This document shows, in pieces, positions 47,089 through 54,364 of a DNA stretch of 64,000 nt (its first letter is position 1; the number at the start of each line of letters is the position of its first letter). The notes below the pieces were generated by a model that saw only the letters and a program-made list of their open reading frames with translations, was not told the DNA's origin and made no database searches. The position numbers were made by a program, and so were the translations under genes. The stretch covers positions 4,192,001 to 4,256,000 of the forward strand of contig OY781964.1 in the NCBI GenBank assembly GCA_963677485.1, written 5' to 3'. This DNA is from Armatimonadota bacterium. GTDB taxonomy: Bacteria > Armatimonadota > HRBIN16.

Positions 47089-49848
47089 ATGAACCTCAAA
47101 AAAAGTATCCGATTTGTATTACTACTCCTCGTAGTGATATGCAGCGTTAAGGTCGATGCACAATTCAAGCCGATTCGGGCGGATCTGCCCACTCCTAATA
47201 GTCGAATCTCCCTCCCCTTCTTTGGTGTTCGACATAATGATGCCCATGGAACTATCGGATCGCTCACTGCCCAAGCCACCGATGCATCACAGCCGCCAGT
47301 CATTGACTACTTCGCACCCCTCGGCGGGTGGGCCTATGATACAGTGAGTATCTACGGGGCAAACTTCACAGGTGTGACCGAGGTATATATTGCCAATTTC
47401 TACGCCGAATTTACGGTAGAGAACGACAATTTGATCAGTGCCTTGGTGCCCGAATACAGGGATGGGACAGGCCCTGTATCAGTGACTGGTCCTGGTGGCA
47501 CCGCGTACAGCACAGAGAATTTCACGATCTACACCTACGGGCCTATCATGACGACCACCATCGATTCATTTGAACCTGTCAGTGGACGGGTGGGCGACAC
47601 GGTCGACATCTATGGTATGGACATCACCGGTGTCAAGAATGTGGCGTTCAACAGAATGCCCGCACAGATAGTCGGATCTGAATATGGACACATTACGGCA
47701 GTAGTGCCGAAAGGAGCGACCACAGGCAAAATATCGATCGATGCCATGTACGGGCCGGCGACAAGCGAGGATGATTTTGTTGTAATTCCATCCACTCCGC
47801 CAGTTGGAGCCATCGAGATATGGGGAGGAAGTAAGCTTACACCGGGAGAGCCAAACGGGTTCACCTACATCTCAGCTGATGATCTCAGTACGATAGGTAT
47901 AGAGCGGGACGGTTCCATTGTAGGCTGGGGATCAAACTATGTTGGAATGCTCATGACTCCGTTACCGAACTCCGATTTTAGGATGGTGGCCTCAGGATGT
48001 GCGCACACTGTTGGATTGAAGAAAAATGGTAGCGTTGTATGTTGGGGCAACAACACAAGCGGACTACGCAATATCTCTGCACCAAACAAGGATTTTATAT
48101 CGATAGATGCAGGAGCGTATCATAATGCCGGTCTGAAGGCTGATGGAACCATAGTCTGTTGGGGTGGTAATGAAAATCAGCAATGTAACGTACCGTCACC
48201 AAATGCAGACTTTACGGCGGTGTCCGCTGGTTATAGTCATACAGTTGCATTAAGGAAAGATGGGTCGGTGGTATGCTGGGGTAGTAACAGCATGGGACAA
48301 TGCAGTGTGCCTTCTCCAAATGCCGATTTCGTGGCTGTATCTGCTGGCTTAAGTTATACTGTAGCTCTCAGAAAGGATGGGTCCATCACAGGTTGGGGTA
48401 ATAACGCATATGGGCAGTGTTCACCACCAGAACCGAATGTGGGATTCGTTGCGGTCTCAGCCGGGTATTATCACACAGTGGCACTTAGGGGAGATGGTTC
48501 GGTGGTTGTATTTGGTAACAATACGTACGGTCAGTGTGATATACCCAAACCAGATGGTATATACATAGCGATCTCCGCTGGTAGTGTTCATTCGGTGGCT
48601 TTAGGTAAAGACGGATCGGTGCAGTGCTGGGGGGGCAATGACAATAACCAATGTGGAGTCACACCGAATGATGACTTTACCTTAGTCAAATCGCGCGATC
48701 ATGTTACATTTGGGTTAAAAAATGACACCATTGTTTGCTTCGGAAGCAATTTAGGCAATCGAATTCATGTTCCCGAACCTAACCAAGGGTTTGTCGAAAT
48801 AGGTGTCGGGCAAGGTCACGCCGTAGGCCTGAGAAATGACGGATCAGTTGTGTGTTGGGGCGATAATTCTTTGGGTCAGTTGGATATTCCTCTACCCAAC
48901 CAGGATTTTGTGGCTATTGCCGTAGGAGCGCAGCACACACTAGCAGTGAAAAGGGACGGCACGGTTGCTGGCTGGGGTTGGAATGAATATAACCAATGCG
49001 ACATACCAGAGCCAAACCGCGCTTTTGTCGCGGTGGCCGCTGGCGATGCGCATTCGATAGGCTTGAAGGAGGACGGATCTTTAGCTCAATGGGGATATGC
49101 GTATTATTGTCAACAATATCCACTACCATCCCCAAACAGCGGCTATGTGGCCATCGCGGCAGGTGACTACCACTCGGTCGGATTGAAAAACGACGGATCG
49201 ATTGTTTGTTGGGGCTGGAACGGATTAGGCCAATGTAACGTGCCTGAACCAAATCAGGACTACATAGCTGTTGCGGCTGGCTATTCACATACTATGGGTC
49301 TCAAATGTAATGGATCGATCGTCTGTTGGGGAAGTAACAACGAAGGCCAGTGCAATATTCCTCTCCCTAACAGTGGCTTTACAGCTATAGCAGCAGGATA
49401 CAACATTTCACTGGCTATACGCAGTCTATATTCGATATCTGGGAATTTGCATCTGGACGGATATTACGGTAATCAGCTACCGGTGGAGCTGTCGGCTACC
49501 ATCAACACTACTGGGTATCCGGACATCACCCAATGTATGAGCTTGAACTCACGTAATGTCAGCGACTATCAAATCACAACCTATCTGCCGCCCCCATATG
49601 ATGTCCGCATTTTTGGATCCCATTTTCTACCCATCAAGGCGGCAAATGTTGCCGGCGGGAATATCCCCAACTTCTCCCTCGTCAACGGCGACGCCGATGG
49701 CGATGGGCAGATCAACCTGTTCGACTTCGTGGTGCTTGACTCCAACTTCGGCAAGTCGACCCCCATGGCAGACCTGAACGGAGATGGGCAGGTGAACCTG
49801 TTTGACTATGTGGTCATCGACCAGAACTTCGGAGCCAGGGGAGATTGA
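47089..49848 (+). CDS. Secreted IPT/TIG + RCC1-repeat protein with dockerin-like tail (copy 2)
   Basis: Two IPT/TIG-like modules (P.IDYFAP..G, IDSFEP.SG.VG..V.I.G, VPKGATTGKI), RCC1 repeats, same tail as copy 1. Confidence 0.88.
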   Translation: MNLKKSIRFVLLLLVVICSVKVDAQFKPIRADLPTPNSRISLPFFGVRHNDAHGTIGSLTAQATDASQPPVIDYFAPLGGWAYDTVSIYGANFTGVTEVYIANFYAEFTVENDNLISALVPEYRDGTGPVSVTGPGGTAYSTENFTIYTYGPIMTTTIDSFEPVSGRVGDTVDIYGMDITGVKNVAFNRMPAQIVGSEYGHITAVVPKGATTGKISIDAMYGPATSEDDFVVIPSTPPVGAIEIWGGSKLTPGEPNGFTYISADDLSTIGIERDGSIVGWGSNYVGMLMTPLPNSDFRMVASGCAHTVGLKKNGSVVCWGNNTSGLRNISAPNKDFISIDAGAYHNAGLKADGTIVCWGGNENQQCNVPSPNADFTAVSAGYSHTVALRKDGSVVCWGSNSMGQCSVPSPNADFVAVSAGLSYTVALRKDGSITGWGNNAYGQCSPPEPNVGFVAVSAGYYHTVALRGDGSVVVFGNNTYGQCDIPKPDGIYIAISAGSVHSVALGKDGSVQCWGGNDNNQCGVTPNDDFTLVKSRDHVTFGLKNDTIVCFGSNLGNRIHVPEPNQGFVEIGVGQGHAVGLRNDGSVVCWGDNSLGQLDIPLPNQDFVAIAVGAQHTLAVKRDGTVAGWGWNEYNQCDIPEPNRAFVAVAAGDAHSIGLKEDGSLAQWGYAYYCQQYPLPSPNSGYVAIAAGDYHSVGLKNDGSIVCWGWNGLGQCNVPEPNQDYIAVAAGYSHTMGLKCNGSIVCWGSNNEGQCNIPLPNSGFTAIAAGYNISLAIRSLYSISGNLHLDGYYGNQLPVELSATINTTGYPDITQCMSLNSRNVSDYQITTYLPPPYDVRIFGSHFLPIKAANVAGGNIPNFSLVNGDADGDGQINLFDFVVLDSNFGKSTPMADLNGDGQVNLFDYVVIDQNFGARGD

Positions 49849-49859
49849 ACCCAACATCG

Positions 49860-50284
49860 CACCCGTCTATCAAATATACATAACATGTCGAAACGTTTGG
49901 TATTTTGCGGTTCTGCTCTCGGTTAGTACCCTGTGCCGTCATGTTCAAAGATGGGCAACTGGAACCATCGATTCCTTGGGGGGTGATGCGCCTGGCTCCA
50001 GGTGTCCGGTCAGAATATGTTCCATAGCTGCCCGCGGCAGCCAAATAATTGGTCTTTAATAGGATGTTTCCATAGTCTGCTGGGGTGACAATAAATACGG
50101 TCAGCTCGATGTGCCTGTTCCTAACAGCGGATTTTTGGTTATTGATGCCGATCAAACATATCATGCGGACTGAGAGCAGTTGGATCCGTTGTGTGTTGGA
50201 GCGATAGACTTGATAGACAGTGCGATGTTCCCACACCAAATCCAGATTACCTGTTTTTGGGCCCTGCACTCTACCACATATTAG
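49860..50284 (+). pseudogene. Decayed RCC1-repeat gene, left fragment
   Basis: Remnants ATGTIDSLG, SIVCWGDNKYGQLDVPVPNSGF and QCDVPTPNPDY...YHIL with stops and frameshifts; left boundary approximate. Confidence 0.8.
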
Positions 50285-51940
50285 TATCTTACCAACCATA
50301 TTTTGAACACGGTGTATAGAATATTCTGATATTACGCACCACACAAAGCGTTAGGCACAACGATCTGGCGAATAGCAAGTGCTGCCATGATGATACGCTT
50401 GCCAAGTGCAGTGAGGTAGTATTTGTAGCGTTTACCGCATTTTTTAACGAGCCGGAATACTCGGCATCGCTTGATGAAGTATGATATCTGAGAGCTGGAC
50501 ATCTGCGGTAAGGCTTTTTGAAGCATACGGTTTGTGATCCCGCTGATGCATCCCTCTCCGCGAGCAAGTGCAATGAGACATTCCAAATCCTTCTTGAGGA
50601 AAAGGTTGAATCCTCGATACGAGCGATGATCACGGGTGGTCGAGGTCGCGATTTTGATGATCTGATGTTCACCATCGCTGTTGTCATCAAGGGCGGAAAG
50701 AAAGTCAAGATATCTGTTGTTTGCAGATAATAACAGTTCCCTCAATGGAGGAAGGCTGTAGATGGTCTTTTGCATAGGGGCGTATTTAATCTCAGTCGTC
50801 CCATCATGATGTTCTACCTCACGGTAGTGTTTAAATTCAGAGACGTCATTCACAGTCGTCTCGATACGCAAGATTATCCCTTGCTTGTCATACATTTTGA
50901 TAGAAGCCCATCCCATGTAGTGTTTGATGCGCGTGCCTTGTATGCGGCGATCGAACTTGTAGTCAGTGCCGATCTCAGCGAGTGTTCGCCCATCAAGTTT
51001 CTTACCAAGAAACATCGCGATAGACTCTGGCGTTACCGTATGTATCGCTGTTTTGACTAGATTATCGTAGATGGCTTTGAGGTCTTCGGCGCGTTTGAAC
51101 ACGATGTCTGTAGCATATTCCACCTGCATTAGCGACCAATGATATGAATTGTCAGCAAGCCGTATCACGGGGCAATACATTCTGGCAAATGCATCCAGCG
51201 CATGGTGCAGCTTATCAGCAGGAAAAGCGTCTGCCAGCCTCTGAGCACAGCTAAAGTCGTCGATTTTTACAAAGGCGTTGTCCAGTGGAGTGAAAACTAC
51301 TCCCTCGGATTGAAGGCAATGCGCGAGATAATTGTGTCCATTACAATAGAATTGCAGACGGAAGGGCACCCAGGTCGGAACTCGTAGATAGCACAGTCCA
51401 AACTCTGCATCGATGAAATAGAAGTAGTAATGAAGACACTTGGTCTCCTTGATATTCAGCCGGGTTTTGTGGGTAATCTTGTCGTGCCACGGGGTGTATG
51501 CAGGACATTTTTCCAACACTGAGAATATGTGGACGAGACCGGGGTGACACCCTCGACTACTAATGATCTCTTTGATGCGGTCTTCTTTTCGAAATGAAGA
51601 GGCACGGCGTATATACTCAATTTCAATGCTGTTGGTAACGGCAAGGCGTTCCGCATTGGCTTTGATCTCATCTCGTAGAGGTTCGGCAAATTCCTTAGGA
51701 AAGTCAAATAGCCTGATGTTGCGTTGATGAAGATAGATGCCCATTCCGTCGCTATGACACCAGCCTGGGATTGTACCGGTGATAACTATGCGGTCGAAGC
51801 ATGAATATACCCCAGCTATCTGCTTTGCATAGCGTTCTTGAAGTGATGTCATTCTGGGCAACCTCACGAAAGGGTGTTTGAATGTATATTACGTGGCGAA
51901 TGCAATCATTCCTTTTTTGGTTGCGGCTAAGCCGCCTTAG
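50285..51940 (-). mobile_element. 1656-bp single-ORF insertion without terminal inverted repeats, flanked by TTAG
   Basis: TTAG at 50281-50284 and 51937-51940; removing the element restores an in-frame RCC1 repeat (YHIL-GLKCDGSIVHWGN); terminal hairpin GCGGC-TAA-GCCGC. Confidence 0.85.
50332..51852 (-). CDS. Putative transposase/Rep-like protein with C-terminal winged HTH
   Basis: About 506 aa from ATG 51852 (GAGGT SD); QVEYATD, IKMYDK and LRIETT motifs; wHTH-like tail with YKYYLTALG. Confidence 0.75.
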   Translation of the reverse strand: MTSLQERYAKQIAGVYSCFDRIVITGTIPGWCHSDGMGIYLHQRNIRLFDFPKEFAEPLRDEIKANAERLAVTNSIEIEYIRRASSFRKEDRIKEIISSRGCHPGLVHIFSVLEKCPAYTPWHDKITHKTRLNIKETKCLHYYFYFIDAEFGLCYLRVPTWVPFRLQFYCNGHNYLAHCLQSEGVVFTPLDNAFVKIDDFSCAQRLADAFPADKLHHALDAFARMYCPVIRLADNSYHWSLMQVEYATDIVFKRAEDLKAIYDNLVKTAIHTVTPESIAMFLGKKLDGRTLAEIGTDYKFDRRIQGTRIKHYMGWASIKMYDKQGIILRIETTVNDVSEFKHYREVEHHDGTTEIKYAPMQKTIYSLPPLRELLLSANNRYLDFLSALDDNSDGEHQIIKIATSTTRDHRSYRGFNLFLKKDLECLIALARGEGCISGITNRMLQKALPQMSSSQISYFIKRCRVFRLVKKCGKRYKYYLTALGKRIIMAALAIRQIVVPNALCGA

Positions 51941-52225: not shown

Positions 52226-54364
52226 ATGAAACACACGATAGCCGTATTCTGTAGAAGCATGGTCAGGTGGGGCATCTGGCTTTTGATGCTGGTTTGCAGT
52301 GTCTATAGCTTTGCCCTGACGGGCACAATAGAAGGTTGGGGATCTAATTGCACAGCACCTGGTGATATGAGTGGCTTTATATCAGTTTCAGCAGGTGCCA
52401 TGCACTCCGCAGGGGTAAAACACGATGGGTCGGTAGTGTGTTGGAGATACAACCACGACCGCCAATGTAATGTGCCAGCACCCAATAGTAACTTCGTGGC
52501 GGTCTCCGCAGGTTTTTACCACACAGTAGGACTGAAGAATGACGGCTCGGTTGTTTGCTGGGGCAGCAACCAGCAGGAGCAGTGCAATGGGCCATCACCT
52601 AACAGCGGGTTCACGGCTGTTTCGACTGGCACCTACTATTCTGCAGGCCTGAAGAGTGACGGCAGCATTGTTTGCTGGGGCAATGCCGCCTATGGTGAGT
52701 GTAGTGTGCCTGCACCCAACAGCGACTTCGTCGCCATTTCTGCAGGTCCCGAGTTCATGGTTGGTCTGAAGCACGACGGCTCCGTGGTCTGCTGGGGAAA
52801 TAACGCAAAAGGCCAATGCAGTGTTCCTTCTCCGAATAGCGGATTTATCGGAATATCGGCAGGAGTCAACCATGCCGCTGGCTTGAAAAGTGATAGCTCG
52901 ATCGTGTGTTGGGGCCTGAACACCGATGGTCAGTGCAGCGTTCCGTCACCGAACAGCAGTTTTATAGCGGTTGCGGCCAGTAAATACCATACATCGGGAT
53001 TGAAGACTGACGGCTCGATCGTGTGTTGGGGCTGGAACGGTGATGGCGGATGCAATGTTCCCGCACCCAACGGCAACTTTACCGCCATATCGGGAGGTGA
53101 CTATCATACGGCAGGACTTAAGCGGGATGGTTCTCTGGTATTCTGGGCATGGAATGACGATGGTCAGTGCAACATGCTTGCACCTAACAGCGGATTTATC
53201 GCCGTTTCGGCAGGATATCATTCTGCCGGGTTGAAACAAGATGGCTCGGTGGTTTGTTGGGGATGGAACACATATGGTCAGTGTGTTGTGCCAGCTCCCA
53301 ACAGCGAGTTCATTGCCCTCTCATCTGGATACGCCCATACAATCGGCTTGAAAAGTGATGGCTCTGTCATCTGTTGGGGCGATAACTCATATGGTCAACG
53401 CCAGGTACCGGCGCCCAACAGCGGGTTTAGCTATATATCTGCAGGAATCAACCATAACGCCGGGGTTAAAACTGACGGATCAGTGGTCTGCTGGGGCTCG
53501 AATTCGTCGTCTCAGTGCTCTGTGCCCTCACCCAACAGCGGATTTATGGCGGTCTCCGCAGGCGACAGCCATACGGTAGGTTTGAAAACTGATGGAACGG
53601 TGGTCTGCTGGGGAGCCAACACGTCAGGGCAGTGTAGCGTACCGGCTCCGAACAGCGGCTTCACAGCGGTTGCAGCGGGGACAAGCCATTCTGCTGGACT
53701 GAAGAACGACGGATCTATTGTCTGCTGGGGATCAAACGCATTCGGTCAATGCACCGTACCAGCTCCTAACAGCGGCTTTACTTCCGTGTCAGCAGGAATT
53801 AGTAATACTGTCGGTTTGAAGAGTGACGGTTCGATCATCTGTTGGGGACTTGATGGGCATGGCCAATGTGCGGTACCGACACCAAACAGCGGATTTGCAG
53901 GTATTTCTGCTGGGGCTTACATTATTGAAGGCATTCGTACTCAGCATTCGGTGTCTGGTGCAGCCCATCTGGGTAACTTCGTGGGCGATGTCACTCATCA
54001 ACAGCTTGTGGCGTCCATCAGCAGCACGGCTAACCCGAGTAACTCGCAGTGCCTGAGCTTTTCGCCACAGATCGACGGAAGTTTTCTGATCAACAGTGCC
54101 ATCAGTCCTCCGTTGCAGGTCTTGATTAGCTGTCAGCATTTCTTGCGGCTCAAAATCCCCAATTTCGATCCATCAAACAGCATGAACTTCACGCTGGTCA
54201 ACGGTGATTCTGATGGTGAAGGACAGATCAACCTGTTCGACTTCGTGGTGCTCGATATGCACTTCGGGTCTTCGGACAGTATGGCAGACCTGGACGGCAA
54301 CGGGCACGTGAATCTGTTCGACTACGTGGTCATCGACAAAAACTTCGGAGCTAAAGCCGACTAA
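52226..54364 (+). CDS. Secreted RCC1-repeat protein with dockerin-like tail (copy 3)
   Basis: Same architecture as copy 1; very regular repeats; GGAGG RBS. Confidence 0.88.
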   Translation: MKHTIAVFCRSMVRWGIWLLMLVCSVYSFALTGTIEGWGSNCTAPGDMSGFISVSAGAMHSAGVKHDGSVVCWRYNHDRQCNVPAPNSNFVAVSAGFYHTVGLKNDGSVVCWGSNQQEQCNGPSPNSGFTAVSTGTYYSAGLKSDGSIVCWGNAAYGECSVPAPNSDFVAISAGPEFMVGLKHDGSVVCWGNNAKGQCSVPSPNSGFIGISAGVNHAAGLKSDSSIVCWGLNTDGQCSVPSPNSSFIAVAASKYHTSGLKTDGSIVCWGWNGDGGCNVPAPNGNFTAISGGDYHTAGLKRDGSLVFWAWNDDGQCNMLAPNSGFIAVSAGYHSAGLKQDGSVVCWGWNTYGQCVVPAPNSEFIALSSGYAHTIGLKSDGSVICWGDNSYGQRQVPAPNSGFSYISAGINHNAGVKTDGSVVCWGSNSSSQCSVPSPNSGFMAVSAGDSHTVGLKTDGTVVCWGANTSGQCSVPAPNSGFTAVAAGTSHSAGLKNDGSIVCWGSNAFGQCTVPAPNSGFTSVSAGISNTVGLKSDGSIICWGLDGHGQCAVPTPNSGFAGISAGAYIIEGIRTQHSVSGAAHLGNFVGDVTHQQLVASISSTANPSNSQCLSFSPQIDGSFLINSAISPPLQVLISCQHFLRLKIPNFDPSNSMNFTLVNGDSDGEGQINLFDFVVLDMHFGSSDSMADLDGNGHVNLFDYVVIDKNFGAKAD

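Follow-up and report, generated by a model that had tools for sequence, protein, structure and literature searches.

A widespread, unclassified family of insertion sequences with asymmetric ends and a putative tyrosine nickase of TBP-like fold

The Rep_trans family (PF02486) takes in the plasmid initiators RepC/RepD of pT181 and pC221 and Rep of pSTK1, together with the MOBT proteins NicK of ICEBs1, RelSt3 of ICESt3 and Orf20 of Tn916. According to PMC5714925 the catalytic tyrosine of these enzymes is in a beta sheet, their metal site is of D-D-E type, and YxKxxE and W/LxRxE are their motifs; CT'AA (the prime marking the nick) is described in PMC9371924 as the conserved nic site of MOBT relaxases and of the Rep_trans/MOBT tyrosine nickases, and at Rep_trans origins a bind site adjoins the nick hairpin, according to PMC4797284. 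A second group, the Rep-Arvir replication initiators, combines a catalytic domain resembling the TATA-binding protein (TBP) with a MarR-like winged helix; its recognition DNA forms hairpins, its kinship with Rep_trans is apparent by structure only, its key residues are Tyr283, E25, D207 and E303, and it is reported to be exclusive to archaea (PMC13107129). The 2026 Rep-Arvir paper gives plasmids, phages and conjugative transposons as the only bacterial uses of Rep_trans. Here we describe an insertion sequence from a 64,000-nucleotide stretch of the genome of an Armatimonadota bacterium (contig OY781964.1, positions 4,192,001 to 4,256,000; hereafter the window), the ends and single protein of which suggest a further use. 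We put at roughly 60% the probability that it is a single-strand transposon moved by a tyrosine nickase and belongs to neither the IS200/IS605 nor the IS91 group.

The stretch at window positions 51911 to 51940 is the left end (LE), that is, the gene-upstream end, of a 1.66-kb insertion sequence from an unclassified and very widespread family. A search of the window's own 5.22-Mb single-contig genome recovers 22 copies, each at least 99.2% identical, and between anchored ends that include the flanking motifs, from (T/A)TAG to TTAGG, 21 of them measure 1661 bp and one measures 1660 bp. The left tetranucleotide, written in the + orientation of the window, is TTAG in 17 copies, ATAG in four and TTAA in one, and the right end reads CCTTAGG in all 22 before the sequence becomes variable. 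At the copy at 4184646 the element's right end (RE, downstream of the gene) has TT in place of CT, which is a point change under any model. No solo ends or miniature inverted-repeat transposable elements were found in this genome, where the LE core and the RE core each have 21 exact occurrences against 22 copies. Contig depth in public sequencing runs is about 21 times that of the flanks, consistent with 22 copies; in the contigs of four such runs no RE-LE or empty-site joints were seen, an observation that bears neither way. A run of T in the LE (window 51913-51918) lacks one base in the 1660-bp copy, as it does in the contigs of public runs X3 and X6.

The sole long open reading frame (ORF) between the ends is listed at 50332-51867 on the minus strand (511 aa), and is counted here as 506 aa from the ATG at 51852. 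Of 8000 candidates scored, at least 7998 are relatives of its protein. Most are 505-508 aa in length; their records show no Pfam domain and give 'hypothetical' or 'MarR family regulator' as the name. The family comprises 6547 clusters at 50% identity (E <=0.001). When one genome per species was scanned, 574 stretches were confirmed, 80 loci of which were kept for comparison, and by the record titles of these loci the family occurs in many bacterial phyla and in a few archaeal bins, being mostly bacterial. In the two same-genus genomes, G001 and G002, the element is absent among the matches listed.

Comparison of copies within seven genomes (2-6 copies each) gives a family LE that reads, in ORF orientation, flank-CCTAAC-CCGG(C/A)NNN(G)CCGG-AACCAAACAGG, or overall CCT'AA(G/C), a 13-nt GC-rich hairpin and then AACCAAA(C)AGG. 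In the window the + strand carries TGGTTG (51918-51923), GCGGC (51923-51927), TAA (51928-51930), GCCGC (51931-51935), C (51936), TTAG (51937-51940) and G (51941), with CAACCA at 50293-50298 near the other end; all the letters at the flagged positions are as the initial annotation had given them. The GCGGC/GCCGC hairpin that it proposed is borne out. Its 5-bp stem and 3-nt loop are the minimum-free-energy fold on both strands, and while this fold taken alone is weak (z -1.45 and -1.99), the LE hairpin is real, because it is kept in 76 of 77 loci with compensatory changes in the stem.

The count of loci was made without requiring a stem: an AACCA(A/G) box was sought within 400 nt upstream of the ORF in the 80 loci and was found in 77, and the 13-mer preceding it forms a perfect 4-bp outer stem in 76 of these. 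L114 and L118 are without the box or without the sequence, and L120 has TACCAA together with the hairpin. For covariation we used an alignment (A3) of 36 distinct LEs, deduplicated from 72 hits after a spurious hit within an ORF (L131:1250-1290) was dropped. The outermost pair is CG in 29 rows, GC in four and UA in three, the next is CG in 33 and UA in three, two pairs never vary, and the innermost is either CG (24) or an A-G mismatch (12). Paired cells amount to 93.3%, a percentage that is biased by the choice of A3 rows through a 4-bp stem rule, which does not bias the kind of variation seen; ten cells are changed on both sides, a number reached in none of 500 shuffles, and control helices slid along the alignment are 6-38% paired. 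All variant pairs are Watson-Crick, with no G-U pair among the 180 cells.

The RE is built differently. Its family form in ORF orientation is ..TGGTAAG(G/A)N-ACTA(A)-flank, and in an alignment of 36 REs (the window and 35 of 38 usable ones, L092 being omitted as a near-duplicate and L111 and L117 running off their contigs) a stem of at least 4 bp occurs in 14, against 35% of shuffles, with no consensus pair from RNAalifold. The asymmetry of the ends, which the initial annotation had also proposed, is thus confirmed, the hairpin being present at the LE only. Two other structures were considered and set aside: RE stems of the TGCC..GGCA type, seen by eye, are not above shuffles in number, and a junction hairpin GGG-ACTAA-CCC that would place CT'AA in its loop shows no covariation when checked by eye across elements.

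A pairing between the two ends, CAACCA with TGGTTG, had been suggested as well. It is exact in the window element, whereas as a conserved feature it does not hold. Both ends were called in 61 elements, 43 of them distinct, and after removal of L066 and L096 as mis-called we sought the complement of the LE box in the last 33 nt of the RE in 41. A 6-mer complement is present in two of them, the window and L120, whose end call is doubtful; a 5-mer is present in three, and the 4-mer TGGT in 17, compared with 11% of shuffled tails. TGGT belongs to the conserved RE word TGGTAAG, and RE variants such as TCGT, TTGT and TGCT still go with the LE box AACCA; both boxes may be protein sites. The AACCAAAAAAGG box next to the window hairpin is likely to be one, by analogy with the bind site beside the nick hairpin of Rep_trans origins as described in PMC4797284.

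Two further proposals concerned the loop. The alternative helix CTAAG/CTTAG, which would make the hairpin switchable by pairing its loop with the junction (columns 8-12 with 17-21 of A3), is paired in 45% of cells against a shuffled mean of 45.9%, shows no two-sided change, and has three of its five pairs formed in just 10, 2 and 3 of the 36 LEs. Guidance of target choice by the loop fares no better when covariation is examined: the junction CCTAA (28 of 36 LEs) occurs with 12 loop types, and CCCAA (5 of 36) shares the loops ACAAG, CAAAG and CGAAG with CCTAA. This test covered the loop and the proposed helix, not every possible guide. Since the alternative helix is not conserved and loop and junction do not covary, the 5-bp CTAAG/CTTAG pairing is peculiar to the window element.

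Reconstructed in ORF orientation, the target is H-C-C-T-A-W-H: every copy has the C at -1, the T and the A, 21 of the 22 have C at position 0, and W is A in 18 and T in four. All 22 insertions adjoin the fixed motif CCTA(W). Two copies out of the 22 have empty counterparts, in the form of uninterrupted paralogous sites within the same genome. The copy at 824515-826173 has two of them, which read ..GAGTATAG followed directly by GTGTTTAC.., and its filled site reads ..GAGTATAG, then the insertion TATC....GCCGCCTTAG, then GTGTTTAC.. (in short form, GAGTATAG-GTGTTT when empty and GAGTATAG-TATC..CCTTAG-GTGTTT when filled). The second case, a diverged paralogue, reads ..GGCGCGGTTAG followed by GG... 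These paralogous sites delimit the inserted segment with an uncertainty of 3 nt (TAG in + orientation, CTA in ORF sense). Among relatives, no clean empty site was found at the three loci tested, synteny being broken or the flanks repetitive.

That the flanking TTAG/CTAA is not a true 4-bp duplication had been suspected in the initial annotation, and this is upheld: a 4-bp duplication is excluded because ATAG on the left is combined with TTAG(G) on the right in four of the 22 copies, one copy has TTAA, the empty sites leave an ambiguity of three nucleotides, and a related element in another genome (G031) shares CT only. The latter is present as seven full copies and one 5'-truncated copy (L140, at G031:C3:76165-76938) that keeps its RE intact and has lost the LE. 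Its RE is ..GATGTAGGTACT, ending in ..GGTACT, and the next base is A in three, T in two and C in two of the full copies, and C in the partial one; its LE is invariably (C/T)-CCT-AACCCGG. A 3-bp duplication therefore fails in four of the seven full copies. In another pair of related copies the flanking base that precedes TAAC at the LE is a or t, and these two sets of variants together place the crossover within C^T^A, if the family uses one mechanism.

At two loci an RE adjoins an LE with a single CTAA between them. In L108 (120-215) the RE of one element is joined to the LE of a different, diverged element, and in L068 (1-110) the first 77 nt are identical to the element's own last 77 nt, so that this join may be a circle junction or a tandem copy, or may come from assembly at k = 77. 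One subfamily, with GCGG/CCGC (or CCGG) stems (L097, L115, L119, L130, L126), has the LE junction CCCAA(C/G) and still has ACTAA at the RE; either it would have CCC as its target or one of its ends has gone unrecognised, and it does not fit the scheme given below.

Some insertions lie in repeated sequence. All three copies on a Sedimentisphaerales chromosome (L101-L103) are within short CTAATAC / CCTAA-rich heptamer repeats, with the same 7-mer on both sides, and look like duplications because the CCT'AA target is itself repeated. Members of a subgroup ending in GTAGGTACT (L063, L069, L074, L085, L127, L134, L140) come from different genomes and have nearly the same 3' flank, NACGGTCGCGGYTC; a motif of this type is present elsewhere in L140 too, and the common flank would be explained if they had inserted into a repeat of the host, or if their end lay beyond our call.

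The protein gives little to sequence searches. Pfam and NCBIfam contain no family for the 511/506-aa product at E up to 0.1, and Pfam finds nothing beyond winged-helix families among the matches listed for 66 homologues (HVO_A0261_N in 31, HTH_45 in 14). A phmmer search and a profile search against PDB sequences return winged-helix matches only and nothing for the catalytic domain, and the ESM Atlas yields unnamed clusters only, with a best score of 0.81. The full-length predicted model is of good quality by its own scores (pLDDT 93.6, pTM 0.80), and structure comparison identifies residues ~390-506 as a winged helix of MarR/HxlR type (Z 9-10). Because winged-helix proteins filled the comparison made with the full model, the N-terminal domain (residues 1-390) was folded alone (pLDDT 91.0) and compared with 48,161 PDB representatives.

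Its best matches are TBPs: 1mp9_B at Z 8.6, with 181 of 189 residues aligned and a root-mean-square deviation (rmsd) of 4.1, and further TBPs at Z 7.7, 7.6, 7.2 and 6.8. Among these stand the Rep_trans initiators RepDE (4cwc_A; Z 7.4, rmsd 5.1, 175 aligned) and RepSTK1 (4cij_A; Z 7.1, rmsd 4.5, 190 aligned). Only TBPs and Rep_trans initiators span both lobes at Z >=6.8, most other rows at Z >=5 covering one lobe, and Foldseek places 4cij first for the full model (E 6.9e-4, probability 0.99). In the 66 diverse homologues 15 residues are invariant, including D20, R21, Y143, Y145, E245, K319, Y321, R329 and E331, with K323 nearly so. In the model all of the invariant residues fall within predicted strands, Y321 among them. 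The sequence IKMYDK fits R/K-x-Y-x-K and LRIE fits x-R-x-E, and the KxYxK pattern around Tyr321 may correspond to R189/Y191/K193 of RepD (PMC4797284).

The present family thus resembles Rep_trans in several respects. It has a predicted TBP-like two-lobed beta-sheet domain, an invariant tyrosine on a predicted strand in K-x-Y-x-K followed by x-R-x-E, and an extra DNA-binding domain of helix-turn-helix type, and in its DNA the motif CT'AA adjoins a GC-rich hairpin, which a conserved box follows directly. In the pT181 record the sequence CCGGCTACTCTAATAGCCGG, which has CT-AA between GC-rich arms, falls inside the rep reading frame. The catalytic-size domain is larger here, ~390 aa against ~200-270 in Rep_trans, and the motif occurs at two places that bound a 1.66-kb multicopy transposon, rather than in a replicon or an integrative and conjugative element (ICE), with nicking putative in our case. 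Rep-Arvir proteins such as RepSNJ2 share with ours an N-terminal TBP-like domain followed by a MarR-like winged helix, an order of residues acid-acid-Tyr-acid (E25, D207, Y283, E303; here D20, E245, Y321, E331), recognition DNA that forms a hairpin, and a likeness to Rep_trans by structure alone. They differ in being archaeal initiators of viruses, plasmids and ICEs, whereas the present family is mostly bacterial and forms multicopy insertions of 1.6-1.7 kb.

Two independent lines meet at this point: the copies put the exchange inside CT^A, and CT'AA next to a GC-rich hairpin is where the only enzymes of this fold make their nick. Since CT'AA, present at both ends, is the published Rep_trans/MOBT nick site, and the catalytic-size domain has a predicted TBP-like fold, nick-and-join transposition via single-stranded DNA is the best reading. 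The N-terminal 390 residues would be a Rep_trans-type tyrosine nickase, using Tyr321 in KMYDK and the acidic residues D20, E245 and E331, and the winged helix and the hairpin would place it on the LE. The ORF-sense strand would be cut at CT'AA at both ends (CCT'AAG.. between 51939 and 51938, ..GATACT'AA between 50283 and 50282), with the enzyme staying on the 5' A, and the ..ACT-3'OH of the RE would then be joined to the 5'-AA.. of the LE, so that a single-stranded circle with the junction ACT-AAC is released or copied out. The reverse reaction at a target CCT'A(W) would insert the element without duplication, CCT and A(W) being supplied by the target, and the second strand would be made by host replication. 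A nick-site motif that is half target and half element would produce the CTA(A) seen at both ends, and the whole hairpin would fall to the element's side of the nick, as a transposon would require given that any flank may lie across from it.

A number of observations weigh against this reading. The fold scores are middling (Z 7-8.6), the highest belongs to a non-enzyme, TBP, and no function follows from the fold by itself; Foldseek with the N-terminal domain alone gives nothing at E <=0.001, the best 4cij row having E 1.6e-3. The PF02486 profile has no match in 21 genomes, this one included (the control, B. subtilis, being positive), and none in the 66 homologues among the 25 families listed; an hhalign comparison with partial pT181 RepC gives a probability of 0.1%; and the PF25227 profile (DUF7845, Rep-Arvir) has no match in the window's own genome at E up to 10, its control Haloferax volcanii being positive. 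The putative active-site residues are candidates chosen by conservation and predicted strands rather than by superposing side chains. In Rep_trans origins CT'AA lies in the loop of the hairpin, whereas here it is 3 nt outside the 5' foot. The DNA data alone also fit a 2-bp CT duplication or a double-strand core exchange. Finally, with the origin at ~2.15 Mb and the terminus at ~4.75 Mb by GC skew, the CT'AA strand is on the lagging-strand template in seven of 22 copies and on the leading in 15, which is opposite to IS608 and not significant (binomial ~0.13). By the same skew the transposase gene is head-on to replication in 15 of the 22 copies, a mild and non-significant tendency opposite to the usual gene bias.

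The alternative that survives best, although we regard it as unlikely, is conservative double-strand site-specific recombination, in which a circular RE-LE junction would recombine with a target sharing a 2-3-bp core CT(A), in the manner of IS607- or IS110-type elements, by a topoisomerase-like tyrosine enzyme or some other chemistry, with the hairpin serving as a duplex palindromic binding site. The same CT(A) at both ends and in the target, the single CTAA of the RE-LE junctions, and the lack of a lagging-strand bias are all as it would predict, and stem variants that are all Watson-Crick suit a duplex palindrome equally well. It has to contend, however, with the lack of any detectable serine-recombinase, tyrosine-recombinase or DEDD domain, with ends that are asymmetric and have one palindrome only, and with the fact that the sole enzymatic relatives of the fold are single-strand nickases.

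We consider it improbable that the element moves by cut and paste, with CTTA..AACCA as its imperfect subterminal inverted repeats and a duplication of 2-3 bp (CT or CTA) that is target-specific, the hairpin being incidental or regulatory. The window LE without its hairpin does resemble the RE (CTAAG-AACCA and CTTAC-CAACCA), the ACCA/TGGT complement exceeds shuffles in the 41 elements, and IS630 and IS5-type elements are precedents for short target-specific duplications. But the protein has no RNase-H-like or other known transposase fold or family, and the termini are not inverted repeats, the 6-mer complement being rare and without covariation. Nor does the duplication behave as expected, since 3 bp fails in the related element of G031 and 4 bp is excluded by the ATAG and TTAG flanks; and the hairpin is kept in nearly every locus. 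Least probable is that the LE hairpin and AACCAAACAGG act as RNA, whether as a 5' leader controlling translation or as a guide or bridge RNA for target choice, for although the position upstream of the ORF and the strong conservation would suit it, a scan of the element found no promoter-like site in the LE (nor did inspection by eye find convincing hexamers across the circle junction), no internal promoter can transcribe the hairpin because it starts 4 nt from the element's first base, Rfam gives no match at E up to 1, G-U pairs are absent from the stem, and the loop covaries with neither junction nor target, the target CCTA being the same across elements with different loops.

Returning to nick-and-join transposition by a tyrosine nickase, the initial annotation had envisaged a single-stranded DNA route with a shared cleavage site, citing IS200/IS605 and IS91. 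The route stands as the best reading, whereas membership of those families does not, there being no HUH Y1 or Y2 match. On this reading the element is like IS200/IS605 (IS608, ISDra2) in having no terminal inverted repeats and no duplication, in inserting beside a fixed tetra- or pentanucleotide with a similar motif at an element end, and in combining a subterminal hairpin with a tyrosine nickase that attaches to the 5' end. TnpA, in contrast, is an HUH Y1 protein of ~150 aa (Y1_Tnp) to which our TBP-like and winged-helix protein has no match; IS200/IS605 elements have hairpins at both ends, whereas ours has one; and guide covariation is absent here between loop and junction pentamer. With IS91/ISCR and the Helitrons there is a likeness in the one large nickase gene (putative here), the asymmetric ends, the tetranucleotide target abutting one end, the lack of duplication and the hairpin near one end, but the protein has a different fold with no HUH Y2 domain or helicase, the zinc-binding N-terminus of IS91/ISCR Y2 transposases is likewise not matched in Pfam or NCBIfam, and this genome has no solo ends or read-through copies. 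Rep_trans and Rep-Arvir are closer to the present enzyme than is IS91. The terminal inverted repeats and fixed-length duplication of arbitrary target bases that characterize DDE insertion sequences were not found. IS110/IS1111 elements have DEDD RuvC-like and Tnp domains and a bridge RNA, whereas here there is no Pfam or Rfam match and no covariation of LE with flank; the shared CT core is a resemblance only.

Coordinates of the element's features are collected in Table 1. The element lies between two paralogous genes for secreted proteins (window 47089-49848 and 52226-54364), both of which, reading from their translations, have many RCC1-like repeats (..GSVVCWG.N..GQC..P.PN..) and a dockerin-like C-terminus. 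Beside one copy (L026:1-170) there is a repeat of ~165 nt that occurs in at least 40 places in the same-genus genome G001 at 91-98% identity.

Table 1. Features of the insertion sequence in the window (letters given in ORF sense).
Feature	Window position	Strand	Basis
Element itself (1656 bp) if nicked as proposed, running from the A that follows CT' at the LE to the T of ..ACT' at the RE	50283..51938	-	Nick placement within CT'AA predicted from the ends of related elements and PMC9371924
CCT, putative target-derived 5' half of the nick-site-like junction CCT'AA	51939..51941	-	C at -1 in 22/22 copies; present in empty sites
AAG, first three bases of the element, between predicted nick and hairpin foot	51936..51938	-	Alignment A3 columns 10-12; A10 and A11 conserved in >=90% of rows
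LE hairpin GCGGC-TTA-GCCGC, 5-bp stem, 3-nt loop	51923..51935	-	Folding, covariation, 76/77 loci
AACCAAAAAAGG box directly 3' of the hairpin; family consensus AACCAAACAGG	51911..51922	-	A27-A31 (ACCAA) invariant in 36/36 distinct LEs; A26 conserved in >=90%
Single ORF, 506 aa and stop (P0001)	50332..51852	-	Residues 1-390 predicted TBP-like two-lobed domain; ~391-506 MarR-like winged helix
Codon of Tyr321 in IKMYDK, candidate catalytic tyrosine	50890..50892	-	Invariant in 66 homologues
RE box TGGTTGGTAAGATACT, family consensus ..TGGTAAG-R-N-ACT, ending at the predicted nick, without hairpin	50283..50298	-	RE comparison across elements
AA (A, then A/T across copies), putative target-derived 3' half of the junction ACT'AW	50281..50282	-	A in 22/22; next base A in 18, T in 4

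Current annotation of insertion sequences misses this family, since 'hypothetical protein' and 'MarR family regulator' are the only labels its members bear. The elements also break assemblies, many homologues being on contigs of 1.6-2.5 kb. A literature search, with most subscription journals and ISfinder outside it, found no report of a transposon with a Rep_trans or TBP-fold enzyme. The best reading has one 506-aa protein both recognising a short hairpin and placing 1.6 kb, with no duplication, at a 5-nt motif, an activity that could be of use as a tool. The mechanism would group the element with the nick-and-join transposons, and its enzyme would be a new branch among them. We give about even odds to the broader proposition that this is the first transposable-element family moved by a TBP-fold, Rep_trans-like, non-HUH tyrosine nickase, and so a third independent origin of nick-and-join single-strand transposition beside HUH Y1 (IS200/IS605) and HUH Y2 (IS91, Helitron). 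Such a family would keep the CT'AA of pT181-type plasmids and MOBT, with the recognition hairpin shifted to the element side so that the end is recognised whatever the flank, and would link Rep_trans, Rep-Arvir and insertion sequences in one ancient enzyme class found in thousands of genomes. If the enzyme is indeed a nickase of Rep_trans type, this fold would serve transposition in addition to plasmid replication, phage replication and conjugation.

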